Below, piece after piece: positions 1,399-59,794 of a DNA stretch of 64,000 bases. Position 1 is the first letter of the stretch; each line of letters opens with the position of its first letter. Source of the stretch: Candidatus Omnitrophota bacterium (lineage in GTDB: Bacteria > Omnitrophota > Gorgyraeia > Tantalellales > Tantalellaceae); NCBI GenBank assembly GCA_015231405.1, contig JADGBR010000010.1, positions 14,489 to 78,488 on the forward strand, given 5' to 3'. The notes beneath the pieces were generated by a model that saw only the letters and a program-made list of their open reading frames with translations, did no database searches and had not been told where the DNA came from. Made by a program: the position numbers and the translations under genes.

Positions 1399-2129
1399 TA
1401 TTCGCTCCCTATCTTTATGTCTATCTTATCCGTATTTACGTTAACCCAGTTCTTTTTGGTATTACCTTCCACCGCGATGCTGATCTTATACCAGTCTTTC
1501 CCCCCGCATTTTGAAAGGACATAATCGCGAAAATCTCCCAGGAGATCCTTGGAAAGCTTTCCCGAAAGCATTATGTCAAGGTTCACATAAATATCGCCAA
1601 GGCGCATCTGATGGACCATGTCGCCGTTCAGAAGCACGTCATCCGAAACCGCCTGAAAATCTCTTATTACCGTACTTGCGTTACCTTCCTCTATCATAAA
1701 ATTAACATGGTCATATTTTGTTTCCCGGCTGAAGATCTTACCTACGACAGGGTCAAGCGAAGGTATCTTCCCCTCGAGCCCGGATTTTTCGAAAGAAACG
1801 CCGCTCAAGCTGCAGTACCCGATAAACTTCCCTTCCCTATAGGATTCAACAAGCGATATTTTCATGACCGCCTTTTCAGCAGAGATGACAAGATCGGCTT
1901 TTTTTACAGCCAGACTGAAATTCTGGTAATAAAGCTGTTCAAAGACATTGCCGCTTCGCTGGGAAAAAGACATGTCATAACCCGAAAAATACCTGCAATA
2001 CATAATAGCCAGAACATCGACACATAGGACAGCCCATGACAATAAAGCCAAGGCCATTACTAGCACCATGACCCTCCAAAAAGTCCTTGTCTCAGGGATC
2101 CTCGCGGCTTTATTTATTATCATTCTCAA
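1398..2129 (-). CDS. hypothetical membrane-anchored protein
   Basis: 243-aa ORF with an N-terminal hydrophobic segment (MVLVMALALLSWAVLCV) and no motif I recognise. It overlaps its neighbours by 1 nt and 20 nt. Confidence 0.45.
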   Translation of the reverse strand: MRMIINKAARIPETRTFWRVMVLVMALALLSWAVLCVDVLAIMYCRYFSGYDMSFSQRSGNVFEQLYYQNFSLAVKKADLVISAEKAVMKISLVESYREGKFIGYCSLSGVSFEKSGLEGKIPSLDPVVGKIFSRETKYDHVNFMIEEGNASTVIRDFQAVSDDVLLNGDMVHQMRLGDIYVNLDIMLSGKLSKDLLGDFRDYVLSKCGGKDWYKISIAVEGNTKKNWVNVNTDKIDIKIGSE

Positions 2130-3636
2130 GCTCTTTTTTCAGAAGATTAAGTATCTTTTTCTGAGCAATGACCTCGCAGAAAATCTTAACAATGCCCGGG
2201 TCGAACTGCGAGCCGCTATTCCGTTTGACCTCTTCGACCGCGGCGGATATAGACAGTGCCTTCCGGTAAGACTTCTTCGTGATCATCGCCTCAAAGGCAG
2301 AAATAACCGCCATCACCCTGGCGGCCAGAGGTATCTCCTCTTTCTTGAGCCCGCGAGGATAGCCGGTTCCGTTATAATTCTCGTGATGGTAAAGGATGAT
2401 AGGTATTATGGGTTTAAGGGCCTTCGATTTCGAGAGGATATCGGCACCTTTAAGGGTATGCTTTTTTATGATATCGAATTCGCTGCCTGTCAAAACACCC
2501 TTTTTCATTAAAAGTTTCTCGGGGATACTGATCTGGCCTGTGTCGTGAAGCATGGCCGCGTACTGCATCATTTTTATCTCCGTCTCGTTCATGTTCAATT
2601 TAAATCCGATCGTTTTGATAAGGTGCCTAAAAGAAGCTTCTGCCACGAACCCGCCGTGGGGCCTTGCCTGCAATAAGCCCGCTATGCACTGGATGCTGCT
2701 CATGGTAAGGCGTTCCTGCTCCTCGTAAAGCTGGGCGTTCTTAATGGCTGTGATGGCCTGTTCCGCCAGAGTTTCCATTATCTCGGAATCATTTTCAGCA
2801 AAAGAAGTCCCGTCGATCTTGTCGTATAATGTGATCACTCCAAGGACATCGCCCTCTATGAGAGGTGTGGCGAGGTAATTCCTGCCCATGATCGACCTGG
2901 ATTGTTTTACTGCACGGCCCGGGGCATACCTGCCAATGGCCACCTTTTTTAGCTTCGTTTTTGTGCTCCGGAGATCTATTGTGGCCACCGGAAGAAGAGT
3001 CTTCCTTTTTTTATCAAGGAGCTTTATGGAACAGCGGTAGGCTTTCATGACCTGCAGTGATAGCCTCGCTATCCTCGGTACCAGTTCGTTAAAATCCAGC
3101 GTCGAGCTCATCAGCCTGTGCAGCGTGTGGACCGTCGACAGGGCTAAAGCCCTAGGACGGATCGTTTCGTTGAGGTCCTCGATCTCCAGTTCCTTCCTGG
3201 ATTCCCTAACGGCCGCGTCCAAATGTTCCTGGTAGAACGCCAATATCTCATTCGAAAGAACGGACGTGACTCCAGCGATAACCACGGCTCCAAGGACATG
3301 GCCGTCGGATCTCAGGAAGAAAATATACCCCTTATTATTCCTGCTCGACCGGAACTCGCCGGACTGTTTTTCGTGATAAACCCCTTTAATAGACCTTAGA
3401 AGTATATCAAGATCTTTTCTCCCTTCGCTTTTCGCTATATCCCTCGATACCATCCATTTCTGGATATTAGCCCCCATGAGCTTGTGGTCGGATTCGGATA
3501 TAAGGGGCAGAAGCAGCCAGGCATGGGTGCCGAATAACCTCAAATGTCCGGAAAACCCGTTATCCTCCTGCCATCTTGAGCGCAATTTTTCGAAAAGCCT
3601 CTGTAAGTATATCCTTTCCTTCTTCTTGATGTTCAT
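2110..3636 (-). CDS. GAF domain-containing HD-GYP phosphodiesterase (c-di-GMP)
   Basis: 508 aa. The C-terminal HD domain carries AAMLHDTGQ and HHENYNGTGYP (the HD-GYP signature). A GAF-like region lies upstream. Confidence 0.8.
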   Translation of the reverse strand: MNIKKKERIYLQRLFEKLRSRWQEDNGFSGHLRLFGTHAWLLLPLISESDHKLMGANIQKWMVSRDIAKSEGRKDLDILLRSIKGVYHEKQSGEFRSSRNNKGYIFFLRSDGHVLGAVVIAGVTSVLSNEILAFYQEHLDAAVRESRKELEIEDLNETIRPRALALSTVHTLHRLMSSTLDFNELVPRIARLSLQVMKAYRCSIKLLDKKRKTLLPVATIDLRSTKTKLKKVAIGRYAPGRAVKQSRSIMGRNYLATPLIEGDVLGVITLYDKIDGTSFAENDSEIMETLAEQAITAIKNAQLYEEQERLTMSSIQCIAGLLQARPHGGFVAEASFRHLIKTIGFKLNMNETEIKMMQYAAMLHDTGQISIPEKLLMKKGVLTGSEFDIIKKHTLKGADILSKSKALKPIIPIILYHHENYNGTGYPRGLKKEEIPLAARVMAVISAFEAMITKKSYRKALSISAAVEEVKRNSGSQFDPGIVKIFCEVIAQKKILNLLKKELENDNK

Positions 3637-7560: not shown

Positions 7561-7634
7561 GGAGCGAGAGAGGGGAATCGAACCCCCGTAGCTAGCTTGG
7601 GAAGCTAGTGCACTACCATTGTGCTACTCTCGCT
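7560..7634 (-). tRNA. tRNA-Gly (anticodon CCC)
   Basis: The minus-strand sequence AGCGAGA-GT-AGCA..GTGC-A-CTAGC-TTCCCAA-GCTAG-CTAC-GGGGGTTCGATTCCCC-TCTCGCT-CCA folds as a cloverleaf with a T-loop GTTCGATTC. The anticodon loop TT-CCC-AA and the CCA end are encoded. Confidence 0.85.
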
Positions 7635-10261: not shown

Positions 10262-10732
10262 CTACTCCCTCATCTTTTGAATGATCCCCGTAGTCGAGTA
10301 CCCGTCCACATAGGGAACAATAACAACATCGCCTCCGTTCTCTTTGACATAACCTGACCCCACGACGGTTCCGGATGTCCAGTCTCCGCCCTTAAAAAGA
10401 ATGTCTGGGGTTATAGCCTTTATAAGTTCAAGGGGCGTATCTTCAACGAATATCACGACAAAGTCAACGCATTCCAGGGCCGCCAAAACCCGCGCCCTTG
10501 CCGATTCGTTATTTATAGGCCGTTCCGGACCCTTCAGGCGTTTTACCGATGCGTCGCTGTTGACCCCCACCACAAGTTTGCCGCATTTTTCACGCGCGCC
10601 GGCAAGATACGTAACATGCCCGACATGTAAAATATCAAAACAGCCGTTAGTGAAACCGACTGACACGCCATTGACTTTTAAAGCCTTGACGAGCCCGGCA
10701 AGTTCCTCGCGTGTTTTAATTTTTGACGTCAT
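10262..10732 (-). CDS. hldC: D-glycero-beta-D-manno-heptose 1-phosphate adenylyltransferase (RfaE domain II-like cytidylyltransferase)
   Basis: 156 aa with the nucleotidyltransferase motif GCFDILHVGH and overall RfaE-II likeness. Confidence 0.75.
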   Translation of the reverse strand: MTSKIKTREELAGLVKALKVNGVSVGFTNGCFDILHVGHVTYLAGAREKCGKLVVGVNSDASVKRLKGPERPINNESARARVLAALECVDFVVIFVEDTPLELIKAITPDILFKGGDWTSGTVVGSGYVKENGGDVVIVPYVDGYSTTGIIQKMRE

Positions 10733-10742
10733 AAAAAAGAGA

Positions 10743-11315
10743 TCACACGAATTTATCGTCGATCAGCCGGCACAAAGCGTGTATAACAATAATGTGGACT
10801 TCCTGTATTCTCGCCGTAACAGAAGATCTGACAAGGATCGAGAGGTCCGCGATATCCTTAAGTTCGCCTCCGTCCTTTCCGGTCAGAGCTATGACCGTCA
10901 TCCCGGCCTTTCGGGCGGTTTTGACCGCACCTATCACGTTCGGGGAATTACCGCTCGTCGAAATGGCAAGGACCGCGTCCCCTTTTACACCGAGGGCCTC
11001 GACCTGGCGGCTGAAAACACGGTCGAAGGAATAGTCGTTTGACATGGCCGTAAGATTGGAAGAGTTAGCCGAAAGGGCTATACAGGGAAGGGGCCTTCTT
11101 TCTTTCTCGAACCTCACCACAAGCTCAGCCGCGAAATGCTCCGAGTCACCAGCGCTCCCGCCGTTGCCCAAGGTCAATATCTTATTCCCGGCTTTAAGAC
11201 ACTTCACCATGATGTCAGCCGCCCTTAAAACTGAAGACATGGCTCCATCTTCCAGCATGAAAGCCGTGGACACCGCAACACTTTCTCTGAATATGTCCTT
11301 TATCTGGCTGTCCAT
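10743..11315 (-). CDS. gmhA: phosphoheptose isomerase (SIS domain)
   Basis: 190 aa with the SIS-domain motifs GNGGSA and ISTSGNS. True ATG at 11315. Confidence 0.85.
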   Translation of the reverse strand: MDSQIKDIFRESVAVSTAFMLEDGAMSSVLRAADIMVKCLKAGNKILTLGNGGSAGDSEHFAAELVVRFEKERRPLPCIALSANSSNLTAMSNDYSFDRVFSRQVEALGVKGDAVLAISTSGNSPNVIGAVKTARKAGMTVIALTGKDGGELKDIADLSILVRSSVTARIQEVHIIVIHALCRLIDDKFV

Positions 11316-11337
11316 ATGTTGTCTAATAACCCTTGAT

Positions 11338-11418
11338 CATAGAATATAGGATCCAGAATAAAGCAACAATAAGACATTCCATAATTCCATAATTCCGTAT
11401 TCTGGATTCTATATTCTG
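11338..11418. repeat. long imperfect inverted repeat (about 21-bp arms, 37-nt loop containing a CCATAATTCC x2 direct repeat)
   Basis: Left arm CATAGAATATAGGATCCAGAATA and right arm TATTCTGGATTCTATATTCTG, with one mismatch. It lies between gmhA and the Asp23-like gene. Confidence 0.7.
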
Positions 11419-11441
11419 CATTCTGTCTACAAATCCCGGCG

Positions 11442-12041
11442 CTAATACCTGTATGGTATCTCCGGGACTTCTTCCGAGTTTATCCCGTCGCGGGAATCCT
11501 TGGGACTAAGACTCCCCGTGATCTTACTGACCCGTATCATGAGATCGATGCTGCCTTCAAGGCCAAGCATCCCCTGGACCTTTCTCGTTACCCCGGACTG
11601 TATCTTCTCGGACACGTCAGGTATCCTTGTTCCGGCTCTCAAAACTACGTCGCTGACTATTTTCAGGCCTTTCCTTTTCAACCGTACCTTTGAACGTATC
11701 GTGCTGATCTCCGGAATATTTTTCGCGACTTTCTGGATATATTCCTCGACCGCGTAAACAGACACTATGACCTCACCGCCTGGATTTTTTAAAGTGATGA
11801 ACTTATCGGCCCTCATACCGGTCATTAGGCGGAAAGAAAGGACAACGCCCATAAGGATCAAAAGCGACCCAGCCAGATAAAGCGCGGCTTGTCCCTCTAC
11901 CCTCTCCGTAAAGATCCCGAACAGCTCGTTCCAAAGGTTTATCGAGATCTTCCCGCAGGAAAGGAGAACGAACGACGTCCCGGTCGCCACCATCACGCAC
12001 ATGAACACTAAAATGAATAACCTTTTTACGAACAGCATCAC
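11442..12041 (-). CDS. Asp23/Gls24-family envelope stress protein with N-terminal membrane anchor (AmaP-like)
   Basis: Two N-terminal TM segments. The Asp23-like core is GGEVIVSVYAVEEYIQKVAKNIPEI...IPDVSEKIQSGVTRKVQGMLGLEG. Confidence 0.55.
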   Translation of the reverse strand: MMLFVKRLFILVFMCVMVATGTSFVLLSCGKISINLWNELFGIFTERVEGQAALYLAGSLLILMGVVLSFRLMTGMRADKFITLKNPGGEVIVSVYAVEEYIQKVAKNIPEISTIRSKVRLKRKGLKIVSDVVLRAGTRIPDVSEKIQSGVTRKVQGMLGLEGSIDLMIRVSKITGSLSPKDSRDGINSEEVPEIPYRY

Positions 12042-12071
12042 GCTTCCTCCCCTAAGGGTCCAAGACCGAAC

Positions 12072-13421
12072 CTACACTTCGGTCTTGGGATAGAATTTTT
12101 CGACATAGTGCGTCGATATATCCCCATTCCTGAAATCAGTATCCTGGAGAACTCTTCTGTGAAAATCTATAGTGGTCTTTATCGGTGCTATGACAAACTC
12201 ATCAAGGGCCCGGAGCATTATATCGATGGCGTGGTCCCTCGTGTCAGAGAATGTTATAAGCTTTGCTATCATGGAATCATAATACGGGTTGATCCTGTAC
12301 CCGGGATAGACATGCGTATCTACCCTGACACCCAACCCTCCGGGAACATATAAAGATGTGATCTCCCCGGGACAGGGACAAAAATTATTGTCGGGGTCCT
12401 CGGCGTTGATCCGGCACTCGATGGAACTGCCCCTGAATTTAACGTCCTCCTGCTTGAACGGCAGTTTGGCCCCGGCGGCTATCTTTATCTGCTCTTTGAC
12501 TATATCTATCCCGGTAACCATTTCCGTCACCGGATGCTCTACCTGTATCCTGGTATTCATCTCCATGAAATAAAAGTTATTTCCGTCCACGAGGAATTCT
12601 ATGGTCCCCGCGCCCTGATAACCCACCACCTTAGCGCCTTCAACAGCCGCTTCGCCCATTTTCTTCCGCATAGTTTCAGAAAGGGCCTTGGACGGCGACT
12701 CCTCTATCAGCTTCTGGTGCCTTCTCTGTACTGTGCAATCCCTTTCCCCCAGGTGCACGACGTTCCCTTTCTCGTCGGCGAGGATCTGGAATTCTATATG
12801 CCGCGGCTGGTCGATATATTTTTCCATGTAAACGTCAGGGTTCCCGAAAGCCGCATCGGCCTCGCTTTGGGCTGTTAAAAAGGCACTGACAAGACGGACG
12901 TCGTTATGGCAAACCCTCATCCCCTTACCGCCACCGCCCGCGGAGGCCTTGATAATAACCGGATATTTTATCCTTTTAGCTTCTTTTAGCGCTTCTTCTT
13001 TCGACTTTATGATCCCCTTAGAACCGGGAGTGACCGGTATCCCGGCCTTTTCCATGGTATCTTTAGCGGTCATTTTATCGCCCATCATCCGCATATTCTC
13101 GGGGGTCGGACCGATGAACTTGATGTTGCAGGAACCGCATATCTCCGCGAAATGATCGTTCTCGGCAAGGAACCCGTATCCCGGGTGGATGGCCTCCACA
13201 TCGGTGATCTCGGCGGCGCTTATAATATTCGGTATATTGAGATAACTTTCAGACGCAGGGGCTTTCCCGATGCAGATAGCCTCATCCGCGAACCTGACAT
13301 GAAGAGACGACTCATCGGCTTCGGAATGCACCGCTACCGTCCTTATCCCGAGCTCCTTACAGGCCCGTATGACCCTTAAAGCTATCTCACCTCTATTTGC
13401 TATTAAGATCTTTTTGAACAT
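12072..13421 (-). CDS. accC: acetyl-CoA carboxylase biotin carboxylase subunit
   Basis: 449 aa. Starts [26 protein letters not shown], with an ATP-grasp domain and a biotin carboxylase C-terminal region. Confidence 0.9.
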
Positions 13422-18341: not shown

Positions 18342-18353
18342 ACAAAAAACAGA

Positions 18354-18387
18354 ACGGGGCGTTACGCTTTCGCATAACGCCCCGTTC
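18354..18387. terminator. bidirectional terminator hairpin (AACGGGGCGTTA ... TAACGCCCCGTT)
   Basis: 12-bp stem between convergent genes. Confidence 0.55.
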
Positions 18388-18407: not shown

Positions 18408-18758
18408 CTATGACAACGTATGTGACGCAAAACTACCCACATTGGGACATGTCGGGTTGGTAGTATAACTTCCGATTGTATAAGAAGCCGTACCAGCCGG
18501 GCATTTGGGCTCTTTCTTGATATAAGAAGGCACCAGATCTGTCCAAGCCGCCGTTCCTGTATGTCCGTCAAGCCCCCATAGAGTCTTCGCGCCGTCGATC
18601 TGTTTCAGATTAGCTATACAAGCGTTCTGCTGTGCTTTTTCCCTGGCCTTTAAAAAGTTCGGGATAGCTACAGCCGCCAATAAACCTATAATTGCAACTA
18701 CTATCATTATTTCGACCAGCGTAAAACCCTGTTTACCTAACAGTTTTTTTATCTTCAT
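18408..18758 (-). CDS. type IV pilin / GspG-like pseudopilin with prepilin leader
   Basis: Start taken at the ATG at 18758, preceded by AAGGAGGTGA 7 nt upstream (the track start is a GTG). The leader MKIKKLLGKQG is followed by FTLVEIMIVVAIIGLLAAVAIP, a class III signal with Glu at +5. Four Cys lie in the C-terminal half. Confidence 0.75.
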   Translation of the reverse strand: MKIKKLLGKQGFTLVEIMIVVAIIGLLAAVAIPNFLKAREKAQQNACIANLKQIDGAKTLWGLDGHTGTAAWTDLVPSYIKKEPKCPAGTASYTIGSYTTNPTCPNVGSFASHTLS

Positions 18759-18903
18759 TTTTCTCACCTCCTTCACAATTTTGTTTGATATTCTTGAATT
18801 GCTTTCCTATCTCACATACATTTCAAGTATACCTGGTGTAAATGAAAAAGGCAAATTTAATGTCTCTTAATCTTTAGCTGGCTATTATATACTGCTAACA
18901 TTA

Positions 18904-20124
18904 TCAACCGCCCAGTACTGAAGATAATTGGAAAATTGGCAGGAACATGCACATAACTATCCCTCCTATAACAATACCCAGAAACGCAATGATAAGCGGC
19001 TCGATCATGCTTGTCAACCCTTCCACAGCGGCATTAACCTGACTGTCGTAAAAATCGGATATCTTTGAGAGCATTTTATCCAGCTGCCCGCTTTTTTCGC
19101 CAACCGACACCATTCTTGTGACCATCGATGGAAAAACCCCGGATTTTTCGAGAGGCGTGGCGATGCTTTCGCCGTCCCTCACTTTGTCCCTTACATCGAT
19201 TATGGCTTTTTCTATTATCACGTTCCCCGACGTTTTCGCCACTATTTCAAGCGCTGAGAGTATTGGAACTCCGCTCTTAACAAGAGTGCTGAGTGTCCTT
19301 GAGAATTTGCTTATGGCGAATTTCCTGATCAGAGGGCCGAATAATGGGATGTTCAACTTCAGTCTGTCGATCTTTTTCATTCCTTTTTCCGTGCGGGCAT
19401 AGTACCTGAACCAGAAGATAAAGGCAATGACTAAGGCTATTATGATAAGAAAGTAATTGCGGAGTATATCGCTTATGTTAATGAGGATCTGCGTTGGCAA
19501 AGGCAGCTGAGCGGAAAAGCCAACGTATATCTCCTTGAACACTGGAATGACCTTTACCATTAAAACAAGCGTGATAAAAACCGCCATAGACGAAACGATC
19601 ATCGGGTACATCAGCGCCGATTTGACCTTTTTCTGCAGGTCATTGGTCTTTTCGATATAGGTAGCTACCCTGTCCAGTATAGTGTCAAGCATCCCGCTGG
19701 ATTCGCCTGCATCGATCATGTTCACGAACAAAGGGGTAAACACATCGGAGTGCTTCAGGAATGCGTCGGAAAGGCTTGATCCCGTATTTACCGAGTCCCT
19801 GACATCGGTAAGGACCTTTTTGAGTGTTATGTTATCGGTCTGGTCTATCAATATGTCCAGCGCGTTGACGACCGGTATACCTGATTCGATCATAGTGGCC
19901 AGTTGGCGGAAAAGTATGACAAGGTCATCCAGTTTGATCTTTTTTCCGCCCTTGATCCTGAAGATCGCGGCAAAGCCCTCGGGCTTTTTAACTTCTTCGA
20001 GCTTCAGGACCATCAACTGTTTCGACCTCAATATTTCGACAGCCTGACCCTTTCCCTGGGCCTCGAGATCGCCTTTTAAGGTCTTCCCGCTCCTGTCCTT
20101 GGCTGTGTAATTAAAATTCGGCAT
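18904..20124 (-). CDS. type II secretion / type IV pilus platform protein (GspF/PilC family)
   Basis: Two T2SSF repeats and three TM segments. Start taken at the internal ATG (MPNFNYTAKDRSGK), because the track extension overlaps pilB. Confidence 0.8.
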   Translation of the reverse strand: MPNFNYTAKDRSGKTLKGDLEAQGKGQAVEILRSKQLMVLKLEEVKKPEGFAAIFRIKGGKKIKLDDLVILFRQLATMIESGIPVVNALDILIDQTDNITLKKVLTDVRDSVNTGSSLSDAFLKHSDVFTPLFVNMIDAGESSGMLDTILDRVATYIEKTNDLQKKVKSALMYPMIVSSMAVFITLVLMVKVIPVFKEIYVGFSAQLPLPTQILINISDILRNYFLIIIALVIAFIFWFRYYARTEKGMKKIDRLKLNIPLFGPLIRKFAISKFSRTLSTLVKSGVPILSALEIVAKTSGNVIIEKAIIDVRDKVRDGESIATPLEKSGVFPSMVTRMVSVGEKSGQLDKMLSKISDFYDSQVNAAVEGLTSMIEPLIIAFLGIVIGGIVMCMFLPIFQLSSVLGG

Positions 20125-20209
20125 GGAACCTGCCTCCGGAAAAGGATCCACGGCCCCCGGATGACTTTCCCATACAGCTCTCGGATAATTTATTCCCCAT
20201 AATTTCACC

Positions 20210-21940
20210 TCAAGTAACCCTATACACTTCCTGGAGCGTCGTATCACCCGAACAGAATTTCCTGATCGCGTTCTCCCTCAGGTTCTTGAACCCTTTTGAC
20301 CTTAGGTTCTTCTTTATCTCTTCCTCGGAAGCTCCCTTATTAATAAGCCTGGCAAGATCTTCGTCCATCATCATCGTCTCTATCGCGGCGAGCCTGCCTC
20401 TGTACCCTGTGTTATTGCACTTGGCGCAGCCTTTTCCTGTATAGAAGGACTTAACATTCCTGATTGCCGGATATCTTCCCTCCAGGCTCTGTCTTATCTC
20501 CGGAGAAAGGTCCATTTCTGTTTTGCAATACGGGCAGATCTTCCGTAATAGCCTTTGGGCACAGCACATTATCAGGCTTGAAGAAATGAGGAAAGGCTCA
20601 ACCCCCATGTTGATAAGCCTCGTTATCGCCCCGACCGAATCGTTGGTATGAAGGGTTGTAAGGACAAGATGCCCGGTCAATGAGGCTTTTATCGCGATAT
20701 CGGCTGTTTCCTGGTCCCTTATCTCGCCTATCAGGATTATATCCGGCGTCTGTCGAAGGATCGAGCGCAAACCCTCGGAAAAACCGAGCCCGATATCCTC
20801 GGAAACCGGGACCTGGGTTATCCCCTGGACCTGATATTCAACGGGATCCTCTACGGTTATTATGTTCTTCTCGGGAACATTCAATTTAGAAAGTACTGAA
20901 TATAATGTTGTGGATTTACCGCTCCCGGTAGGGCCGGTTACAAGGATAATGCCATATGGGCTTGCGATCGCCTTGTTAAAATCGGCCAGAGGTTCCGGTA
21001 GAAATCCCAAAGACTCAAGGCCCACCGACAGGTTGCTCTTATCAAGGGCCCTAAGAACTATTTTGTTCCCGAACACGGTAGGAAGCACCGATACCCTGAA
21101 GTCAATTTCCTTACCGGACATCTTTATCCTGAACCTCCCGTCCTGTGTCGTCCTGGAATCGGTGATGTCTATATTGCTCATTATTTTTATCCTCGTAGTC
21201 ACCGCCCCCTGGTTCTTTTGCGGGAGTTCAAAAGCCTCCTGTAGTTCACCGTCTATCCTGTACCGAATCCTGAGATGTTTTTCCTGGGGCTCGATATGTA
21301 TATCGCTGGCTCTCCTTTTTATCGCCTCGCTTATTATCACGGAAACAATTTTTACGATCGGAGCCCCTCCGCTTTCGGCCGAATCGGCGGAAAGGTCGAA
21401 CTCCTCGAGCTTTGTATCCCTGGACACCATCTCTACCGAAGCTATGTCCTTATTTGCGTCGAGAATGCTGTCGACGTCAAGATCATCGTTCCTGCCGGAT
21501 GAAAGGCTGGCCTCAATATCTTTACGCAAAGCCAGAAGAACGCTGATTTCACAGCCGGTCACTGTCTTCACGTCGTCAAGCGCCATTATATCCGACGGGT
21601 CGGAGATGGCTACGGTCAGGAAATCATCGATCCTGGATACCGCGATCACCTTATACTTGTGCGATATCTTGTCCGGGATGAGATTTCGGATATCAGGCGA
21701 TATCTCTATCCTGGAGAGAATGACCGGCACGATCCCGAAACAAACGCTCATCGAAGAAAGAAGATCGTCCCGTTTGACCATTTTTTCATCCAATAAACGG
21801 GTAAATAGGTCGACTCCAGGCCCAAGAGGCTTTTCCGTTGACGAGCGCCACTTTTCATCCAGGCATCCTTTCTTCTGAAGGATATCAAGTATCTTTTCCT
21901 GTGTTTTCTTATCCATTGCTATTATCCATACTCCTGTCAT
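20210..21940 (-). CDS. GspE/PilB-family secretion ATPase (copy 1)
   Basis: 576 aa with an N-terminal T2SSE_N-like domain, Walker A GPTGSGKSTT, an Asp box, and a C-terminal CxxC...CxxC zinc finger. Confidence 0.85.
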   Translation of the reverse strand: MTGVWIIAMDKKTQEKILDILQKKGCLDEKWRSSTEKPLGPGVDLFTRLLDEKMVKRDDLLSSMSVCFGIVPVILSRIEISPDIRNLIPDKISHKYKVIAVSRIDDFLTVAISDPSDIMALDDVKTVTGCEISVLLALRKDIEASLSSGRNDDLDVDSILDANKDIASVEMVSRDTKLEEFDLSADSAESGGAPIVKIVSVIISEAIKRRASDIHIEPQEKHLRIRYRIDGELQEAFELPQKNQGAVTTRIKIMSNIDITDSRTTQDGRFRIKMSGKEIDFRVSVLPTVFGNKIVLRALDKSNLSVGLESLGFLPEPLADFNKAIASPYGIILVTGPTGSGKSTTLYSVLSKLNVPEKNIITVEDPVEYQVQGITQVPVSEDIGLGFSEGLRSILRQTPDIILIGEIRDQETADIAIKASLTGHLVLTTLHTNDSVGAITRLINMGVEPFLISSSLIMCCAQRLLRKICPYCKTEMDLSPEIRQSLEGRYPAIRNVKSFYTGKGCAKCNNTGYRGRLAAIETMMMDEDLARLINKGASEEEIKKNLRSKGFKNLRENAIRKFCSGDTTLQEVYRVT

Positions 21941-23669
21941 CCATGGTCACCCTTAATATTTCCTCAAGGGAAGTGACGCCTAGAATGACGTTCTCCATAC
22001 CGTTCATCCTGAGAGTAATCATCCCCTCCTCTCTGGCCTTCTTCTCAAGCTCAGGCTCATCAGCTCCCCTGAACAATATCTCCTTTATAGCCGGAGTCAT
22101 CCTGAGGCACTCAACGATCACCGCCCTCCCCTTGTATCCGGAATTCATACAAACGGGGCACCCTTTCGGACGGTATATGCCTTTTATCTTACCATCGGGA
22201 CCTATGAGCCCGAATTTCCTGGCGGTCTTCTCCTCGGGAACAAAATACTCCCTGCATTCCCTGCAGAGCTTTCTGACAAGCCTTTGGGCTATGATCATAA
22301 TGACCGACGACGCGATAAGGAAAGGCTCAACGCCCATATTGACCAGACGGACGATTGACCCTGAAGCGCTGTTGGTATGCAATGTACTCAGCACCAGATG
22401 CCCTGTCAGAGCGGATTTGATAGCTATATCCACCGTCTCAAAATCCCTGATCTCCCCTATCAGTATAATATCCGGGTCCTGTCTGAGTATTGACCTCAAA
22501 CAACTCGAGAATGTCAGCCCTATTTCACTCTTCACATTCACCTGGTTTATCCCCGATAGCTCATATTCGACCGGGTCCTCTACGGTGACTAGGTTCCTGC
22601 CTGGAGAATCGACATATTTCAGTATTGAGTAGAGTGTCGTAGTTTTACCGGAACCGGTGGGGCCGCAGGCGAGTATCATCCCATGAGGCTTTTCGCTTTC
22701 CTCTATAATAGATTCCCTGTCACGGTCCTGAAGCCCCAGCCTGTTTATATCCACCATCACCTGGTCTTTGTCCAGTATCCTGAGACATGCCTTCTCACCT
22801 GTGATGGAAGGAAGTATGGATAAACGGAAATCAACCTTCCGCCCCTCGACCTTTATCTGGAACCTTCCGTCCTGGGGCAGCCTTCTCTCGGCGATATTCA
22901 GCATGGACATGACCTTCAGCCTCGAAATAAGCGAAGCGTGATATTTTTTCGGGGGCGTCTCTATCTCATGGAGTATCCCGTCGATCCTGTACCTTACGCG
23001 GAAAGTCCTTTCCATAGGCTCTATAAGTATATCGCTGGCTCCCTGTTTTACGCCGCGTCCGAGAATTAGATTGGCAAGTTTGATAATAGGGGTATCTTCG
23101 GCCGCGCTTAGGAGATCCCCGGAAGTGGCTTCTTCCTCTTCTCCGAGCATCTGCATCTCGGAGGCACCGATATCGTCGACTATCTTCTCTATCTCCTCGT
23201 CGGCCGAACGTTCGTAAAACCGGGTAATGGCTTCCCGCATCACGTCCTTATCGGAAAGAACGGCCCTCAGATTAAGCTTTGTGATGGCCTTCAGGTCGTC
23301 CATGGCGAAAATATTAGTCGGGTCGGTAATAGCCACCGTCAGCACATCACCCAATCTGGCCACCGGTAGGACCATGTACATCAAAGCCACCCTTTTAGGT
23401 AAGATACTGACGAGGTCTCTGTCAATGTTGATCCGGGAAAGGTCCAGCGGGGTAATACCGGTCAACATACTGACCGATGAAAGAAAAGTCTCCCTTGATA
23501 TCTTATGGAGCTTAATAAGGATATCCGTGACATTCTCGCCGCTTTCGAAAAATATTTCGCGCGCCTCTTTAAGATCAAGGGCGGACAGCTTCCCACCCTT
23601 TACCATATGATCGCAGATTTTATCTTCCAGGGTCATACCCATTGTTCCCCTCTTCCAGAGGCTGTTCAT
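21909..23669 (-). CDS. GspE/PilB-family secretion ATPase (copy 2, paralogue)
   Basis: 586 aa with the same architecture as copy 1 (GPTGSGKTTT; CPVC..GYKGR). It overlaps copy 1 by 32 nt. Confidence 0.85.
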   Translation of the reverse strand: MNSLWKRGTMGMTLEDKICDHMVKGGKLSALDLKEAREIFFESGENVTDILIKLHKISRETFLSSVSMLTGITPLDLSRINIDRDLVSILPKRVALMYMVLPVARLGDVLTVAITDPTNIFAMDDLKAITKLNLRAVLSDKDVMREAITRFYERSADEEIEKIVDDIGASEMQMLGEEEEATSGDLLSAAEDTPIIKLANLILGRGVKQGASDILIEPMERTFRVRYRIDGILHEIETPPKKYHASLISRLKVMSMLNIAERRLPQDGRFQIKVEGRKVDFRLSILPSITGEKACLRILDKDQVMVDINRLGLQDRDRESIIEESEKPHGMILACGPTGSGKTTTLYSILKYVDSPGRNLVTVEDPVEYELSGINQVNVKSEIGLTFSSCLRSILRQDPDIILIGEIRDFETVDIAIKSALTGHLVLSTLHTNSASGSIVRLVNMGVEPFLIASSVIMIIAQRLVRKLCRECREYFVPEEKTARKFGLIGPDGKIKGIYRPKGCPVCMNSGYKGRAVIVECLRMTPAIKEILFRGADEPELEKKAREEGMITLRMNGMENVILGVTSLEEILRVTMDDRSMDNSNG

Positions 23670-23692
23670 TCCCGCCTGGATAGGATCAGATA

Positions 23693-23746
23693 CCCGGAAT
23701 TCAGAATTCAGATCCCGGAACTCAGAAGCCAGGAGCCGGAATTTAG
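23693..23746. promoter_or_regulatory. three direct repeats CCGGAA(Y)T(Y)AGAA phased at exactly 21 bp
   Basis: CCGGAA at 23694, 23715 and 23736, in the 73-nt gap between the MshEN-domain gene stop and the pilB-2 start. Confidence 0.6.
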
Positions 23747-24192
23747 CTTTTTGAAGAATAGATCTTATTCAAGGCCGAATCAATATCAGAAATCACAGCG
23801 ATAAAGGATCTCACCGTTCTCATAGAGATCTCTTCCACATATTCAACGCTCTTCGTGTCCAGTGGATTCGCCATGGCAACGACGAGTATATCCCCGATAA
23901 GGTCGATAGGCGCGACTTTGTGTTCCCTGGCCATGGCTTCAGGTATGAACTTCGAGGCGTCCTTATTGAATTCGAACGATCCAAGAGTTATGAACGGGCA
24001 ACCGTATTGTGTTATAATGGCCTTCGTTATATCCCTGTCGGTCATAAAATTGAGCTTTACCAGGTTTTCGCCGAGAAGACCACCTTCGTTGGATTGCAGC
24101 TCCAAAGCCTCTCTTACCTGGCTCTGGGAGACCACACCCTGCCTTATAAGTATTTCACCTATCTTATCGTCGGTCAGCCTCTTGAACGTCAC
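23743..24192 (-). CDS. stand-alone T2SSE_N / MshEN-like domain protein (putative c-di-GMP receptor)
   Basis: 149 aa. The N-terminus KIGEILIRQGVVSQSQVREALELQ closely matches the MshEN c-di-GMP-binding motif RLGxxLVxxGxIxxxQLxxALxxQ. There is no ATPase domain. Confidence 0.6.
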   Translation of the reverse strand: MTFKRLTDDKIGEILIRQGVVSQSQVREALELQSNEGGLLGENLVKLNFMTDRDITKAIITQYGCPFITLGSFEFNKDASKFIPEAMAREHKVAPIDLIGDILVVAMANPLDTKSVEYVEEISMRTVRSFIAVISDIDSALNKIYSSKS

Positions 24193-24251
24193 TGTTTCCT
24201 CCCTTCGTCGTTCACTCGAACCCCATGAGCCTTATCCGTGCGCCATGACGA

Positions 24252-25313
24252 TCACCCTATCAGTTTCATCAGCTCCTCAACGTCCTGGCTTCTTGAGAGA
24301 GCATCGTCATATGAAATTATATCTTTTTTATAGAGCTCAAGAAGCGACTGATTCATCGTTTTCATACCCAGCCGCTGAGAGGTCTGTATCGTAGAATAAA
24401 TGTGATGAACCCTTTCATCCCGGATCATGTTCCGGATAGGAGGCGTAACAACCAGGATCTCGGCCGCCAGCACCCGGTCTGTCATCGTCTTATTAGTGAT
24501 CAACTGCTGGGACACTATCCCGAGAAGGACGAAAGAAAGCTGCGTGCGTATCTGTTTCTGCTGATGGGCCGGGAAGACGTCTACTATCCTGTTTATCGTC
24601 TGTATACTGTCGGATGTATGGAGCGTCCCAAGAACAAGATGGCCTGTATCGGCTATGACCAGGGCGCTTTGAATGCTTTCATAATCGCGAAGCTCGCCGA
24701 TAAGGATCACGTCCGGATCCTGCCTCAGAACATGCCGTAGAGAGTTATTAAAAGAGAGTGTGTCGAACCCCACCTCCCTCTGGTCAATAACCGCGGAAAT
24801 GTTATGGTGAACGTACTCTATAGGGTCCTCGACCGTTACGATATGGCACTTACGCGTTTTGTTGATCTCATTTACCATGGCCGCCAATGTAGTGGATTTA
24901 CCGCTTCCCGTCGCCCCCGTAACGAGAACAAGCCCTTTGGGGAACCGGCAAAAGTCTTTAAGAACGCTCTCAGGAAGGCCGCATTCTGAAATACTCCTTA
25001 TTTTTATGGGGATCATCCTTATCGCGCACCCTACATGACCTCTCTGCAAAAATACATTGGCCCTGAACCTGGATACGTTCTTGATAAAGAAAGCGAAATC
25101 CATTTCCTTATGTTCTTCGAATTTCCTTATCTGATCCTCCGACATCAGGCTGTACGCCATCCTTTTGGATTCCTCCGGAGACGTTATCTCCTCTCCTATC
25201 TTCACTAGATCGTTATTTATCCTGTAATGGAGCTGGCTTTCCGCTGAAATATGGAGATCGGAGGCGTTTTTAGCGGGCATAGCCTCGAGTAACTTTCTTA
25301 TTTTATCGTCCAT
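24252..25313 (-). CDS. pilT: twitching motility ATPase PilT
   Basis: 353 aa. Walker A GATGSGKSTT and PilT-like sequence throughout, with no N-terminal GspE_N domain. Confidence 0.85.
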   Translation of the reverse strand: MDDKIRKLLEAMPAKNASDLHISAESQLHYRINNDLVKIGEEITSPEESKRMAYSLMSEDQIRKFEEHKEMDFAFFIKNVSRFRANVFLQRGHVGCAIRMIPIKIRSISECGLPESVLKDFCRFPKGLVLVTGATGSGKSTTLAAMVNEINKTRKCHIVTVEDPIEYVHHNISAVIDQREVGFDTLSFNNSLRHVLRQDPDVILIGELRDYESIQSALVIADTGHLVLGTLHTSDSIQTINRIVDVFPAHQQKQIRTQLSFVLLGIVSQQLITNKTMTDRVLAAEILVVTPPIRNMIRDERVHHIYSTIQTSQRLGMKTMNQSLLELYKKDIISYDDALSRSQDVEELMKLIG

Positions 25314-25343
25314 CCATGGCCTCCTCCCAGTAGGCTAACATTA

Positions 25344-25372
25344 ATAATACCTTAATGGCAGGTGAAAGTCAA
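25344..25372 (-). promoter_or_regulatory. sigma70 promoter TTGACT-N17-TATTAT upstream of pilT
   Basis: -35 at 25372..25367 and -10 at 25349..25344. A GGAGG SD lies 7 nt before the ATG at 25313. Confidence 0.55.
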
Positions 25373-25492: not shown

Positions 25493-27253
25493 CTAACTCG
25501 AAGCCCCATCCCGACGATACAGCCCGCTCTCCCTAAGTTCCTCCCTGAGCGACTCGTCGGATAACTCCGTACGAATATGCCCCCAGGGTAACGGGTCATC
25601 CGGGGAAAGGGTTTTCCCGGCCTCGCGCCTCATGTCCATCGAATTTTCGGCAAAAGCTCTCTCCCATGCCGCGAGATCGAAGAACTCCGACCACCCGTCC
25701 ATCTTCGCTCCGTTCTTCCAGGCGGAATGAATGACATCCCCCATCGAATAGTCGCCTCTGGCCATACAACCTTCCAGGAGCGACCTCGGGATGTCATGGA
25801 ACTTGATCTCTACGTTATTGCTGGATCCGTTGACAAGGTGTTTTTTAGCTTCTATAAGATTAATTTCGGGGGCCATTCCGAGCCATTGCAGGGAGGTCTG
25901 TGGTTTTGGTATGAAGGGATTAACGCTGACGCTTAATTTAGCGGCTTTCTTCCCGTATTCCCTTCGGAGTGAAGATATACTCCGGCACCAGCCTATTATC
26001 CCGGTTGTTTCCTTGAGCGGGTCTTGAGTAAACCCTACCATGAAATAAAGTTTGAGCCGGTCCCACCCCATGGAAAAAGCCCTGCCGGCCGATCTTTTTA
26101 GCACTTCGTAATCTATATCCTTTCCTATCGCGGACATAACTTCGGGAGAGGCCGTTTCCGGGGCGAAAGTCAACCCGGCTTTCTTTATCATCGATATTAC
26201 CTCGGGCAATTCGTAAAATGACTCGTCCACCCTAAGCGAAGGAATGTTTATCCCCATACCTTTTCCTGCGAAACGAGCGTTCAAGACCTTTACAAGAGTT
26301 ACAATGTCGGGATAATTCACGCTTGAAAGAGATAAAAGCGATATCTCATCATACCCGGTATTCAAATATGTTTCCCAGCATAATCGCTCGATGACATCCT
26401 TGCTCCTGATCCTGAGAGGCCTGTTCACTGCGCTCGCCTGGCAGAACCGGCACCTGTTCGGGCACCCTCTCATTATTTCGACCATAATGCGCTCATGCAC
26501 TATCTTTATGAAAGGAACTATCTGTTTTGTCGGGTAATACGCCTTATTGAGATCTTTAACCGAAGCTTTACTGACGGTCTTGGGAATACCCAAGCCCAAG
26601 GGCTCGACTATCGTTATCTTCCCGATTTTCTTTTTCTGGTAGAGCGCGGGCATGTAGATCCCAGCCATCCCGGCCAGCATTGCCAGTTTTTGCTTTCTGC
26701 CCAGTGGTCTTTCACGGATCGCGCCGTATTTTTCAAGAAATTCAGGCAACGTATCTTCGGCGTCGCCTATGAAAAAGACATCGATGAACCCGCTCATGGG
26801 CTCGGGGTTATAACAGCAGGAGCCACCGGCGATAACAAGGGGCTCCTCATCGCCCCTTTCCGCGGATAAGACCGTTATCCCCGACAACTCGAGCATGTTG
26901 AGGACATTCGTGTACGTGAGCTCGTACGACAGGGAGAATCCCAGGACATCGAACTTATTGATGTCGGTCTTGGACTCCAGGCTGAACAGCCTTCTTCCGC
27001 CCGACCTCAGTTCCCGCTCGATATCAGGCCATGGAGCGAAAACCCTTTCGCATGATACGTCATCGATTTCATTCAGCAGATGATAGAGTATCTTGATCCC
27101 TAAATAACTCATACCTATCTCATAGACATCGGGATATGCCAGAGCCACTGTTATCCGTCCGTCTCGCGGCTTTTTCCGGACAATGTTCGTCTCTTCCCCG
27201 ATGTACCTGCCGGGCTTTTCGACTTTCTTGAATATTTCCAAAAGATCGGTCAT
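25493..27253 (-). CDS. B12-binding-domain radical SAM protein (TIGR03960-like)
   Basis: 586 aa. Radical SAM cluster motif CPNRCRFC and an N-terminal B12-binding-like region. Confidence 0.7.
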   Translation of the reverse strand: MTDLLEIFKKVEKPGRYIGEETNIVRKKPRDGRITVALAYPDVYEIGMSYLGIKILYHLLNEIDDVSCERVFAPWPDIERELRSGGRRLFSLESKTDINKFDVLGFSLSYELTYTNVLNMLELSGITVLSAERGDEEPLVIAGGSCCYNPEPMSGFIDVFFIGDAEDTLPEFLEKYGAIRERPLGRKQKLAMLAGMAGIYMPALYQKKKIGKITIVEPLGLGIPKTVSKASVKDLNKAYYPTKQIVPFIKIVHERIMVEIMRGCPNRCRFCQASAVNRPLRIRSKDVIERLCWETYLNTGYDEISLLSLSSVNYPDIVTLVKVLNARFAGKGMGINIPSLRVDESFYELPEVISMIKKAGLTFAPETASPEVMSAIGKDIDYEVLKRSAGRAFSMGWDRLKLYFMVGFTQDPLKETTGIIGWCRSISSLRREYGKKAAKLSVSVNPFIPKPQTSLQWLGMAPEINLIEAKKHLVNGSSNNVEIKFHDIPRSLLEGCMARGDYSMGDVIHSAWKNGAKMDGWSEFFDLAAWERAFAENSMDMRREAGKTLSPDDPLPWGHIRTELSDESLREELRESGLYRRDGASS

Positions 27254-41030: not shown

Positions 41031-41828
41031 TCACCGCGACAATTCTACGGAACGGCATTTCGCCTTATCCACGGCGTTAATTACGATCTTTTTAAGACCT
41101 TGTTTGTCGAATATCCTAAGGGCGGCTTCGGTTGTCCCCCCCTTGGAAGCTACTTGCTTGACCAACTCAGCCGGAATAATTCCATCATCCATAAGAAGAG
41201 CGGCACCCCGAACGGTCTGGCGGACGATCTTAAGTGCGATATCCCTGGACAGACCCATTTTTACCGCCGCTTCGACCATGGAAGCGGCCATGAAGAATAA
41301 ATAAGCCGGTCCACTGCCGGCGACGGCCGTAAATGCGTCAAAATACTTCTCATCAAGAGGAACGACATCCCCAATGGCCTTGAATATGCCTATCGCCTCT
41401 TCCTTCTTCGTTACGTGAATATTAAAGGCTATCGCGGTGACGCTGGCGCCTTTTTTTGCCGCAAGGTTGGGCATCGCCCTGGCGACAGGTGTCTTTTTAC
41501 CTATATATCTGTTTACGGTCGCGATCCTAACCCCGGCCATGATAGTTATTACCATGGTCTTTCCCGTAATATGCCGGGCTATCTCAGGAAAAAGGTCGGA
41601 TGAGTCCTGGGGTTTAACGGCTATTATTATGTAGTCCGACCCCTTAATAAGCGACTCGAGATCCACGCCTACGGCACCTGTCCTTTTAGAAAGGCCCCTC
41701 TGTTTTAAAGCATCCTTATCACTCAGAAAGATCTTCTCCGGCACGCATATTCGCTTCGCTAATAAGCCCTCGGCGATGGAAGCGCCCATGATCCCACACC
41801 CAATAATGCCGACTTTTATTTGTCCCAT
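41031..41828 (-). CDS. proC: pyrroline-5-carboxylate reductase
   Basis: The first ATG is at 41828 (MGQIKVGIIGCGIMG, a Rossmann motif). The track start at 41855 is a TTG. Confidence 0.85.
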   Translation of the reverse strand: MGQIKVGIIGCGIMGASIAEGLLAKRICVPEKIFLSDKDALKQRGLSKRTGAVGVDLESLIKGSDYIIIAVKPQDSSDLFPEIARHITGKTMVITIMAGVRIATVNRYIGKKTPVARAMPNLAAKKGASVTAIAFNIHVTKKEEAIGIFKAIGDVVPLDEKYFDAFTAVAGSGPAYLFFMAASMVEAAVKMGLSRDIALKIVRQTVRGAALLMDDGIIPAELVKQVASKGGTTEAALRIFDKQGLKKIVINAVDKAKCRSVELSR

Positions 41829-41884
41829 TTTATGCGAGTTCCTATGTATACCCAATTGATTTAGAGGACAAAAATATCATACTT

Positions 41885-42123
41885 AGGAGAGAAAGTCAAC
41901 TGAAGAAGGCTCGCACTCGTTAACGCCTTCGGCGCGGGAAACAATGGACCCTTGGGGAACAATTAATACACAGGCTTGAAAAAGCAGGAACAAAATACCC
42001 GCACTCGTCAGCCAAACACGGTTAATGGACCCATACTACTCCCCGGGTTGAAACCCTGGGTTTCCAGGTAAAGACCCATACTGAGGCGGCTTACATGTAA
42101 CCCCGCCTTTAACAGCGGGGTTT
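41885..42123 (+). ncRNA. candidate structured small RNA (unassigned family) ending in an intrinsic terminator
   Basis: The 284-nt gap has no ORF. On the plus strand there is a possible TTGATT-N16/17 promoter at 41856-41884, internal hairpins (GGGTT-ga-AACCC, CCTGG-gttt-CCAGG, GGCGG..CCGCC), and a terminal CCCCGC-cuuuaaca-GCGGGG followed by UUU at 42101-42123. Confidence 0.25.
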
Positions 42124-42139
42124 AGCGCCTCCGAATGTA

Positions 42140-43195: not shown

Positions 43196-43323
43196 TGCGG
43201 CTCCTTATATCCTATTTAATGATCCAATGTGCTGAGCGGTGAGTGGCCGAAGGTAAAAGTGATCGTGTTCATTGTATTGGACCATTTCCCCTTCCGAGAC
43301 CCGTTCCCCTTGACCCTTAACGA

Positions 43324-45074: not shown

Positions 45075-45090
45075 GCGCTTACTCCTATTC

Positions 45091-45150
45091 GCGATTCGTA
45101 TCGAAAATCGCAGATCTACCCCTACAAACACGAACCACTATCCACGAATC
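45091..45150. repeat. degenerate copy of the GTGGTTCG-type palindromic element
   Basis: The right half CACGAACCACTATCCACGAATC matches the right arms of the copies at 27309 and 58931. The left half retains only GATTCGT. Confidence 0.45.
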
Positions 45151-45177
45151 TAGACCACTATCTTTCATCCCCGATCA

Positions 45178-47494: not shown

Positions 47495-47531
47495 GTCACC
47501 CCGTTGTTTGTCATATGCTCTCGCACCTTCG

Positions 47532-48629: not shown

Positions 48630-48632
48630 CCT

Positions 48633-49727: not shown

Positions 49728-49749
49728 TTATTTTATGACAGATGAAAGA

Positions 49750-51099: not shown

Positions 51100-51147
51100 T
51101 TAAGCCATCCTTGTTCTCATAAATGAACACATGTGCCGCATAGCGCG

Positions 51148-53582: not shown

Positions 53583-53597
53583 TAAATATTCTTTATC

Positions 53598-55034: not shown

Positions 55035-55037
55035 GGT

Positions 55038-58079: not shown

Positions 58080-58109
58080 TTATATTACTTCCAATCCACT
58101 CGGCAAAGG

Positions 58110-58807: not shown

Positions 58808-58808
58808 T

Positions 58809-59091: not shown

Positions 59092-59523
59092 TCACCAGTA
59101 AAGCTTCTTGAACCTCTCCGAATAACGCTTGATCCACTCCTGCGAAGCCTCGGAAAGGGACATGTCCCTCCCCAGCTGAAGCGACCTGAGCACGCGGTAT
59201 TCCTCAATGAGATATATCTGTTCGATAAGTTTAACTTTGAAGGCGTCAGAGTAGGTAAGAAAAGCGACGCCTATTTTAAAGAGTCCGGTCTCAGGATCTT
59301 TCGCAGTATGAACGACTTTGGCTTTGATATGGAACGTTCTTTCGTACAACGGCATATTTATATTGATCCTCTTTTCTATTTCAACGTCATCCTTAGCCAT
59401 GAACAAAAGGCCGCCCTCGCTGATATCCAGGGTCTGCGTTTTGGTAAATTCCGGCCCGTCCTCTATCTGGTATTCAAGGGGACTTACAAGAAGGTGCCTT
59501 ATGAATCTTCTTTTCTCTGACAT
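59092..59523 (-). CDS. PilZ domain protein (c-di-GMP binding)
   Basis: Start taken at the internal ATG (MSEKRRFIRH). PilZ motifs RRFIRH (RxxxR) and DISEGGLLF (D/NxSxGG) are present. Confidence 0.7.
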   Translation of the reverse strand: MSEKRRFIRHLLVSPLEYQIEDGPEFTKTQTLDISEGGLLFMAKDDVEIEKRININMPLYERTFHIKAKVVHTAKDPETGLFKIGVAFLTYSDAFKVKLIEQIYLIEEYRVLRSLQLGRDMSLSEASQEWIKRYSERFKKLYW

Positions 59524-59560
59524 AGTACTTCCTTTTATTTGGCAACTATGCGCTATCGGA

Positions 59561-59794
59561 TCACAACAGCCTGTTATCAACAAGTTCTTTCTCCAGCTTA
59601 TTTATCGCTTCCTTAAGCTGCGAGAATAACTTAACGTTGATATTTATCCCTTTGCCTGTCGGCACTTTCTCATTCCCCTGGGGCGGCTGAGTCCATATCC
59701 TAATATCGATAACATCATTTCCCTGATATTCGGATATGCGAACCCTTATGTCCTGATACTTGTTCTTTTCAAAAGAGGCTATATCCTTTTCCAT
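59561..59794 (-). CDS. PC4/YdbC-like ssDNA-binding protein
   Basis: 77 aa with the pattern DIRVRISEYQG..VIDIRIW....G.......KGININ that is typical of bacterial PC4-fold proteins. Confidence 0.45.
   Translation of the reverse strand: MEKDIASFEKNKYQDIRVRISEYQGNDVIDIRIWTQPPQGNEKVPTGKGININVKLFSQLKEAINKLEKELVDNRLL

Follow-up and report, generated by a model that had tools for sequence, protein, structure and literature searches.

A run of six genes in a 64-kb stretch of Candidatus Omnitrophota DNA (assembly GCA_015231405.1, contig JADGBR010000010.1; the whole stretch is called the window here and all positions are window positions) probably represents the motor operon of a type IVa-like pilus in which a stand-alone MshEN protein of 149 residues serves as a receptor for cyclic di-GMP (c-di-GMP) and acts in trans on the pilus motor. 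The six genes are co-directional on the minus strand and encode, according to the open reading frame (ORF) listing and profile searches, PilT, the MshEN-only protein, two PilB-type assembly ATPases (A and B), PilC and a pilin (Table 1); the order and sizes given for them in an initial annotation of the sequence matched both the ORF listing and the domain models. To our knowledge, wherever MshEN is known to mediate the response of type IV pili to c-di-GMP, the sensor is part of the ATPase chain, the remaining cases of c-di-GMP control relying on unrelated adaptors (FimX, PilZ).

The 149-residue protein matches PF05157 with 58.1 bits (cut-off 23.1) and the NCBIfam model NF053729 ("c-di-GMP_motif"), which spans the 53-residue c-di-GMP-binding motif, with 53.1 bits (cut-off 38). 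MshEN is the sole domain matched, PilZ, EAL and GGDEF domains being absent from the protein. The MshEN motif reads RLGxx(L/V/I)(L/V/I)xxG(L/V/I)(L/V/I)xxxxLxxxLxxQ, with a glycine at position 3 of each copy (PMC5013675), and motif positions were counted after Wang et al. 2016 (PMC5013675), that is, as 22 relaxed positions in two tandem 24-residue motifs with a 5-residue spacer. The pair found in the window protein, KIGEILIRQGVVSQSQVREALELQ-SNEGG-LLGENLVKLNFMTDRDITKAIITQ, agrees at 20/22 relaxed positions and has the 5-residue spacer. Its first motif is a full match to the relaxed regular expression, the second scores 9/11 (R1 is replaced by L and G10 by N), and both position-3 glycines (Gly12 and Gly41) as well as both terminal glutamines are retained. 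In V. cholerae MshEN the substitution G11L abolishes c-di-GMP binding and G40I lowers it 72-fold (PMC5013675 supplement). The near-consensus motif that the initial annotation had reported for this MshEN-only protein is thus borne out by hidden Markov model scores above the cut-offs, and the loss of conserved MshEN residues that it had considered did not occur, both key glycines being aligned.

Structural comparison points in the same direction. Over its whole length the protein aligns with N-domains of solved structure, namely those from Geobacter PilB, T. thermophilus PilF (E 2e-34 against the PilF domains) and V. cholerae MshE. An AlphaFold2 model computed with 42 homologues as input (mean predicted local distance difference test score 94.9) has helices at residues 11-17, 23-36, 40-46 and 52-63, followed by an alpha/beta part. 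Its best Foldseek match is 5htl, the complex of V. cholerae MshE with c-di-GMP (template modelling score 0.76-0.80, root-mean-square deviation 2.6 A); a clear match was also obtained to the PilZ-binding N-domain of PilB in 7lko, and 2bh1 and 4pht gave weak partial matches (E ~0.3, ~65 columns). As modelled, the protein is a complete MshEN domain, with a four-helix c-di-GMP pocket and a T2SSE_N1-type alpha/beta subdomain, on a separate polypeptide.

The two ATPases encoded next to it are 42% identical to each other. ATPase A matches T2SSE (E 7e-137) and MshEN (62.8 bits), as does ATPase B (E 6e-132 and 40.6 bits, respectively), and the Walker A motif, Asp box, Walker B motif, His box and the two CxxC pairs of the tetracysteine zinc site are found in both. 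A and B are ancient paralogues, and judged by these motifs both are predicted to be catalytically competent. A truncated ATPase or a pseudogene was ruled out, as both are full length with all motifs, in agreement with the two full-length paralogues of the initial annotation. Their N-domains match the c-di-GMP motif as poorly as claimed there: ATPase A has 14/22 motif positions, with Cys and Thr where the key glycines are expected, ATPase B has 12-14/22 with neither key glycine, and NF053729 has no match at E<0.01 in either protein. The overlap between the two ATPase genes stands as well, but its reported length of 32 nt, which follows from the first ATG of B, does not; the ATG at 21916 (MDKKTQEKIL), which gives 8 nt, is favoured because the first helix then has the same residue number as in orthologues.

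The division between an intact detached sensor and degenerate motor domains recurs in related genomes. Nine further loci were retrieved via the stand-alone protein (L001-L003, L008-L011, L014 and L015, each with an orthologue of ATPase A), eight of them sequence-distinct since L008 and L009 are near-identical. The stand-alone MshEN gene lies directly upstream of the A-B ATPase pair in 8/8 sequence-distinct loci, the window being the ninth case. A common backbone, (lgt-rluD-)aroA-mreBCD-PBP2-rodA followed by the MshEN gene, A, B, pilC and pilins, is shared by the window and its relatives; it is not visible in L002, a 2.8-kb contig that ends at the start of B. Wherever the A-B pair is fully resolved (eight loci), both glycines are present in the stand-alone protein; at the glycine positions the N-domains of A have T/S, C/T, C/S or Q/S, and those of B never have both glycines together. 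Two loci with a single PilB, one from Omnitrophota (L007) and one from Desulforamulus (L005), encode Gly at both motif positions in PilB and have no stand-alone gene. The pattern of a stand-alone sensor beside degenerate motor domains was seen again in L012, a short contig of another lineage; downstream of P0092, which is from a different lineage and on a 1.2-kb contig, the gene likewise opens with a degenerate MshEN N-domain.

The window protein belongs to a sizeable family. A HMMER search returned 15,345 MshEN matches, and about 40 of the 150 best cluster representatives are single-domain proteins of 145-185 residues with their own start and a short tail. In a profile search with a threshold of E<=1e-10 the family comes to at least 842 proteins; among the best 120, almost all have 145-152 residues and PF05157 alone. 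Eight of the profile matches have a named source (six Omnitrophota/Omnitrophica, one Planctomycetota and one unclassified "bacterium"), and these are labelled "hypothetical protein" or, wrongly, "PilB". A search with a four-sequence alignment returned five loci, four of which hold full-length PilBs. In the alignment of the 42 stand-alone homologues G12 and G41 are the sole invariant columns, and L15, L30, L44 and Q62 are at least 90% conserved, a pattern which shows that the predicted ligand site of the family is under purifying selection. Mean identity between loci is 70% for the stand-alone protein, 67-69% for the ATPase cores, 60% for the N-domain of A and 52% for that of B. In a neighbour-joining tree the stand-alone proteins form a single clade, separate from the N-domains of A and B. 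It has three subgroups, of which the window type (with L001 and L002) is sister to the one encoded next to pilC. The detached-sensor arrangement is a conserved feature mainly of Omnitrophota and is not peculiar to the window.

These data bear directly on the reading of the 149-residue gene as a functionless piece of a pilB that was split or duplicated, produced by gene fission, an assembly error or the decay of a pseudogene. Such fragments do arise, as in L001, where one in-frame TAG in the orthologue of PilB-A yields a 145-residue N-domain ORF, and a truncated but still transcribed MshEN fragment of pilB is reported from Paenibacillus thiaminolyticus (PMC9765702). The remnant reading is nevertheless extremely improbable for the window gene, considering that the family has at least 842 members of conserved length with their own start and stop codons, forms a clade distinct from the N-domains of A and B, is conserved to the same degree as the ATPase cores and has invariant glycines in the ligand site. 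The window gene also has a strong ribosome-binding site of its own (GGGAGG, 5 nt upstream of its GTG start, as read from the sequence).

The L001 case (10482-12206) deserves a separate remark. In this related Omnitrophota genome a TAG at a conserved Ser codon splits the PilB-A orthologue into a 145-residue MshEN-only ORF and a 412-residue ATPase core. Natural fission was rejected as the origin of this arrangement, given the single in-frame TAG at a conserved Ser codon and the conserved in-frame sequence after it; the TAG probably reflects either a nonsense mutation of recent date or an error in sequencing.

In the relatives, genes for the turnover of c-di-GMP are interleaved with the pilus genes. 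A GAF-GGDEF diguanylate cyclase is encoded just upstream in 6/8 sequence-distinct loci. Its gene stops 1-10 nt before the MshEN gene in L003, L008/L009, L010 and L014; in L011 the ORF of the cyclase extends into the MshEN gene, and in L001 pilT stands between the two. An HD-GYP gene is found between pilB-B and pilC in L010, and a REC-GGDEF gene also lies inside the cluster in L003 and L014. The stand-alone gene overlaps pilB-A by 4 nt in two loci, and in L003, L011 and L014 pilC is preceded, at a distance of 3 nt, by a second MshEN gene of the stand-alone kind. The suggestion of the initial annotation that c-di-GMP sensing resides on a separate subunit gains support from the invariant glycines, the degenerate neighbouring ATPases and these interleaved cyclase and HD-GYP genes. 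The window itself encodes a GAF-HD-GYP protein and a PilZ-domain protein, both distant from the pilus operon (Table 1), and c-di-GMP signalling is therefore in use.

A further cyclase of unusual architecture was noticed in the three loci with two MshEN genes. It is a conserved GGDEF-AAA_16 (STAND-like)-HEAT protein of about 1,370 residues (L003 5579-9730, L011 13960-18087, L014 14894-18997), and its gene is part of the pilus cluster, with pilB-B on one side and the second MshEN gene on the other.

What we infer about the ligand of the stand-alone protein, about its partner and about the direction of its effect is as follows. The protein would bind c-di-GMP through its two 24-residue half-motifs, and its N1-type subdomain, together with its surface, would dock on PilB-A/PilB-B or on the PilC/PilM platform. 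The level of c-di-GMP would in this way be coupled in trans to pilus extension, with binding promoting extension as in MshE, and the N-domains of A and B would keep a scaffold or docking role alone.

Several observations weigh against a trans-acting receptor of this kind. The deviations in motif 2 (R1 to L, G10 to N) mean that affinity for c-di-GMP may differ from that of MshE, and the N-domains of ATPase A in some relatives keep 17-19/22 motif positions and lack the glycines alone, so that weak residual binding by the motors is possible. The window is without the adjacent diguanylate cyclase found in most relatives and has pilT in its place. The relatives were found through the stand-alone protein, and the 8/8 association with the A-B pair is therefore no unbiased census. 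Finally, a Verrucomicrobiota locus (L004, 7830-13762) has the order PilB-PilT-PilB-PilC with both PilB N-domains devoid of the motif glycines and no stand-alone MshEN gene on its 17-kb contig; degenerate cis domains are therefore not always paired with a nearby stand-alone gene.

The main rival to the trans-receptor reading is a decoy or brake under the control of c-di-GMP. The stand-alone protein would mimic the ATPase N-domains and compete for a PilM/GspL-type domain or for the site on PilC, thereby blocking or swapping the engaging ATPase (A, B or PilT) according to c-di-GMP rather than activating PilB directly. The T2SSE_N1 fold binds GspL in GspE. The C-terminal subdomain of the window protein has this fold, the window-type protein clusters in the tree with the pilC-adjacent subgroup, whose genes are translationally coupled to pilC (the 3-nt gap in L003, L011 and L014), and the window gene is placed between pilT and pilB-A, all of which would suit a competitor. 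The other subgroup, however, is coupled to pilB-A through the 4-nt overlaps, so that PilB fits equally well as the partner, and the known cases of MshEN control by c-di-GMP (MshE, PilB2, PilF) promote extension (established knowledge and PMC5013675). A decoy is, on balance, rather unlikely.

An extended form of the trans-receptor reading would give Omnitrophota a private c-di-GMP circuit in the pilus motor, in which dedicated cyclases produce the signal next to one or two detachable MshEN sensors, and the sensors choose whether A, B or PilT works on PilC. We regard this as unlikely. If true, it would amount to a second-messenger "gear shift", for instance between pili for adhesion or predation and pili for secretion or DNA uptake, and the degenerate MshEN N-domains of many PilB and GspE proteins would be docking sites for detached sensors and not dead relics.

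The remaining genes of the operon are those of a type IVa pilus, all of whose set of PilB, PilT, PilC and a prepilin with a class III leader is found there. PilT scores 451 bits on the PilT/PilU model TIGR01420 (cut-off 319) and E 2.8e-46 on T2SSE, with Walker A, Asp box and His box found. PilC has two T2SSF domains (E 1.3e-66) and scores 427 and 417 bits on PilC models and 390 bits on GspF; its likely start is at 20124 because the family alignments begin at about ORF residues 39-45. The pilin matches N_methyl PF07963 (30.5 bits) and TIGR02532 (33 bits) and contains the motif GFTLVE, and its N-terminal helix resembles the PilA, ComGC and GspG models, each below its cut-off. On the PilB model TIGR02538 (cut-off 675.65) ATPases A and B score 614 and 579 bits, with full-length coverage and the N-domain included from residue 2, and on the GspE model TIGR02533 (cut-off 630.25) they score 584 and 570 bits; both are thus under both equivalog cut-offs, with the PilB model slightly ahead for each.

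The closeness of these scores raises the alternative of a type II secretion system or another pseudopilus system with GspE-like ATPases and a GspG-like pseudopilin. In addition to the nearly equal GspE scores, the 390 bits of PilC on GspF and the short pilin (122 residues), whose N-terminus resembles the GspG and ComGC models, would fit such a system. The operon nevertheless includes the retraction ATPase PilT at 451 bits, the PilC models exceed GspF (427 versus 390 bits), and the PilB model covers the N-domain of both ATPases in full. Reading all ORFs of at least 110 residues in the 64 kb, with Pfam searches on unclear ones, brought up no GspC, GspD, GspL or GspM and no pseudopilins GspG-K, and PilT is present. 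The related locus L003 has PilM_2, PilO and a secretin beside a TPR protein, without GspC, GspL or GspM. A secretion system is, in view of these features, very unlikely.

The type IVa-like pilus can also be followed beyond the operon. The same reading of the 64 kb revealed no secretin, PilM, PilN, PilO, PilP or prepilin peptidase, which upholds the absence of PilM/N/O/P/Q, GspC/D and prepilin peptidase from the window noted in the initial annotation. In L003 the cluster further encodes a pilin, PilO, a T2SSB-like protein, a secretin, a TPR protein and PilM, followed by additional pilins, so that a complete type IVa machine of the diderm kind exists in the lineage. By analogy with L003, the lack of secretin and alignment genes in the window is a matter of gene placement and would not reflect a reduced machine; the compact module without secretin or alignment complex described in the initial annotation is to be read in this way.

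Several known systems resemble the arrangement in part. PilB/GspE ATPases whose N-terminal MshEN domain is functional, such as MshE of Vibrio cholerae (VC0405), PilB of M. xanthus, PilB2 of C. perfringens and PilF of T. thermophilus, share with the window protein the domain, the motifs, the spacer and the N1 subdomain, and the setting is likewise that of a type IV pilus extension ATPase. They differ in that the sensor is fused to the ATPase, whereas in the window it is a separate polypeptide, and in that MshE and PilB involve one ATPase, compared with two conserved paralogues in the window whose N-domains are without both glycines. T. thermophilus PilF is also similar in having several MshEN copies per motor, only some of which are c-di-GMP-competent; its three tandem GSPII/MshEN domains are, however, fused in one chain, while the presumably competent copy of the window is detached. 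In relatives it is moreover present twice, coupled once to pilB-A and once to pilC.

A like logic is found in FimX-PilZ-PilB of Xanthomonas and FimX-PilB of P. aeruginosa, where PilB does not itself sense c-di-GMP and a separate receptor docks on its N-terminal domain (PMC5595344). The receptor fold is unrelated there, FimX working with a degenerate EAL domain and PilZ as an adaptor, whereas the predicted receptor of the window is a homologue of the PilB N-domain; the likeness would be one of function and not of family membership. The closest architecture listed in Supplementary Table 4 of PMC5013675 is that of PA3740 of P. aeruginosa, entered as "MshEN - xT2SSE_N1". PA3740, which has also served as an MshEN reference, is likewise small and carries MshEN without an ATPase domain, but its N1 subdomain is highly diverged, it is reported from beta- and gammaproteobacteria and it has been linked to swarming. 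The N1 subdomain of the window protein, by contrast, is canonical (PF05157 58 bits), and the protein falls in a distinct, mainly Omnitrophota clade. No description of a canonical stand-alone MshEN protein with twin PilBs or of its distribution in Omnitrophota was found in the searchable literature, which includes few subscription journals. The parts are thus familiar, and the detached, duplicated sensor and the embedded cyclases appear, from gene content, to make up a coherent module.

If the trans-receptor reading is true, a detached sensor beside disabled motors would offer a simple natural system in which to study the path from MshEN occupancy to the hexamer, since each of the two could be purified on its own and then combined with the other. 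A function would likewise be gained for at least 842 proteins that now carry the label "hypothetical" or, wrongly, "PilB". Omnitrophota have not been cultured; many of them are ultra-small, and they may depend on hosts. Attachment is a foremost candidate role for their pili, and a predicted regulatory switch would be a useful handle on them.

The limits of the operon and the coordinates of its genes are given in Table 1. The promoter-like site falls in the 180-nt gap past a radical-SAM gene, 5' of pilT, and the terminator-like hairpin lies 20 nt 3' of the pilin stop. The six genes look like one operon because of this promoter-like site at the 5' end and the hairpin at the 3' end. A scan with Rfam gathering thresholds found only a tRNA at 7563-7633 and no c-di-GMP riboswitch or other RNA element in the operon. 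Both flanks consist of core chromosome, with mreBCD, PBP2, rodA, the radical-SAM gene and, further out, the division and cell wall (dcw) cluster upstream, and efp, accBC and thiC downstream.

Table 1. Features of the pilus operon and c-di-GMP-related genes in the window (window positions).
Feature	Position	Strand	Basis
Promoter-like site TTGACT-17-TATTAT	25344..25372	-	Consensus scan, 10/12 matches; sequence match alone
pilT, retraction-type ATPase, 353 aa	24252..25313	-	TIGR01420, T2SSE
Stand-alone MshEN protein, 149 aa, predicted c-di-GMP receptor	23743..24192	-	PF05157, NF053729
PilB-type assembly ATPase A, 586 aa, degenerate MshEN N-domain	21909..23669	-	T2SSE and MshEN
PilB-type assembly ATPase B, 568 aa from likely start	20210..21916	-	T2SSE and MshEN; longest ORF to 21940 (576 aa)
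pilC, platform protein, ~406 aa from MPNFNY	18904..20124	-	Two T2SSF domains; ORF extends to 20247
Pilin, class III (prepilin) leader GKQG/FTLVEIM, 122 aa	18408..18776	-	N_methyl PF07963
Intrinsic terminator-like hairpin	18352..18387	-	Terminator scan; 16-bp stem, 10 G-C pairs, T tail
GAF-HD-GYP protein, predicted c-di-GMP phosphodiesterase	2110..3636	-	PF13487 HD_5 135 bits and GAF; HD/GYP motifs read
PilZ-domain protein, second type of c-di-GMP receptor	59092..59583	-	PF07238 47.5 bits; RRFIRH, DISEGG read

Some minor observations concern the surroundings of the operon. The radical-SAM protein encoded between rodA and the pilus operon (25493-27253, minus strand) is of the Radical_SAM_N2 type in its orthologues, and the gene occupies the same position in L001, L008, L009 and L010. 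The dcw cluster (41031-58870, minus strand) comprises mraZ, rsmH, ftsL, ftsI, murE, murF, mraY, murD, ftsW, murG, murC, murB, ddl, ftsQ and an FtsA-like gene (42140-43195, SHS2_FTSA 51 bits) with proC next to it; no ftsZ was seen among the ORFs read in the 64 kb. All credible genes across about 62 kb (window 1-62600) are on the minus strand and the GC skew is negative throughout, which is consistent with a single replichore and strong co-orientation of genes. At 61471-62514 (minus strand) a ParA/MinD-like ATPase is apparently fused to a C-terminal glycogen-binding-like module of the AMPK1_CBM type, as judged by eye from the translation. Among the loci collected, one assigned to a Halobacteria archaeon metagenome-assembled genome (L006, CAWKAE010000022.1) encodes PilC, a pilin and a PilB of bacterial type that has an MshEN N-domain; this record may be mis-binned or may represent a transfer.

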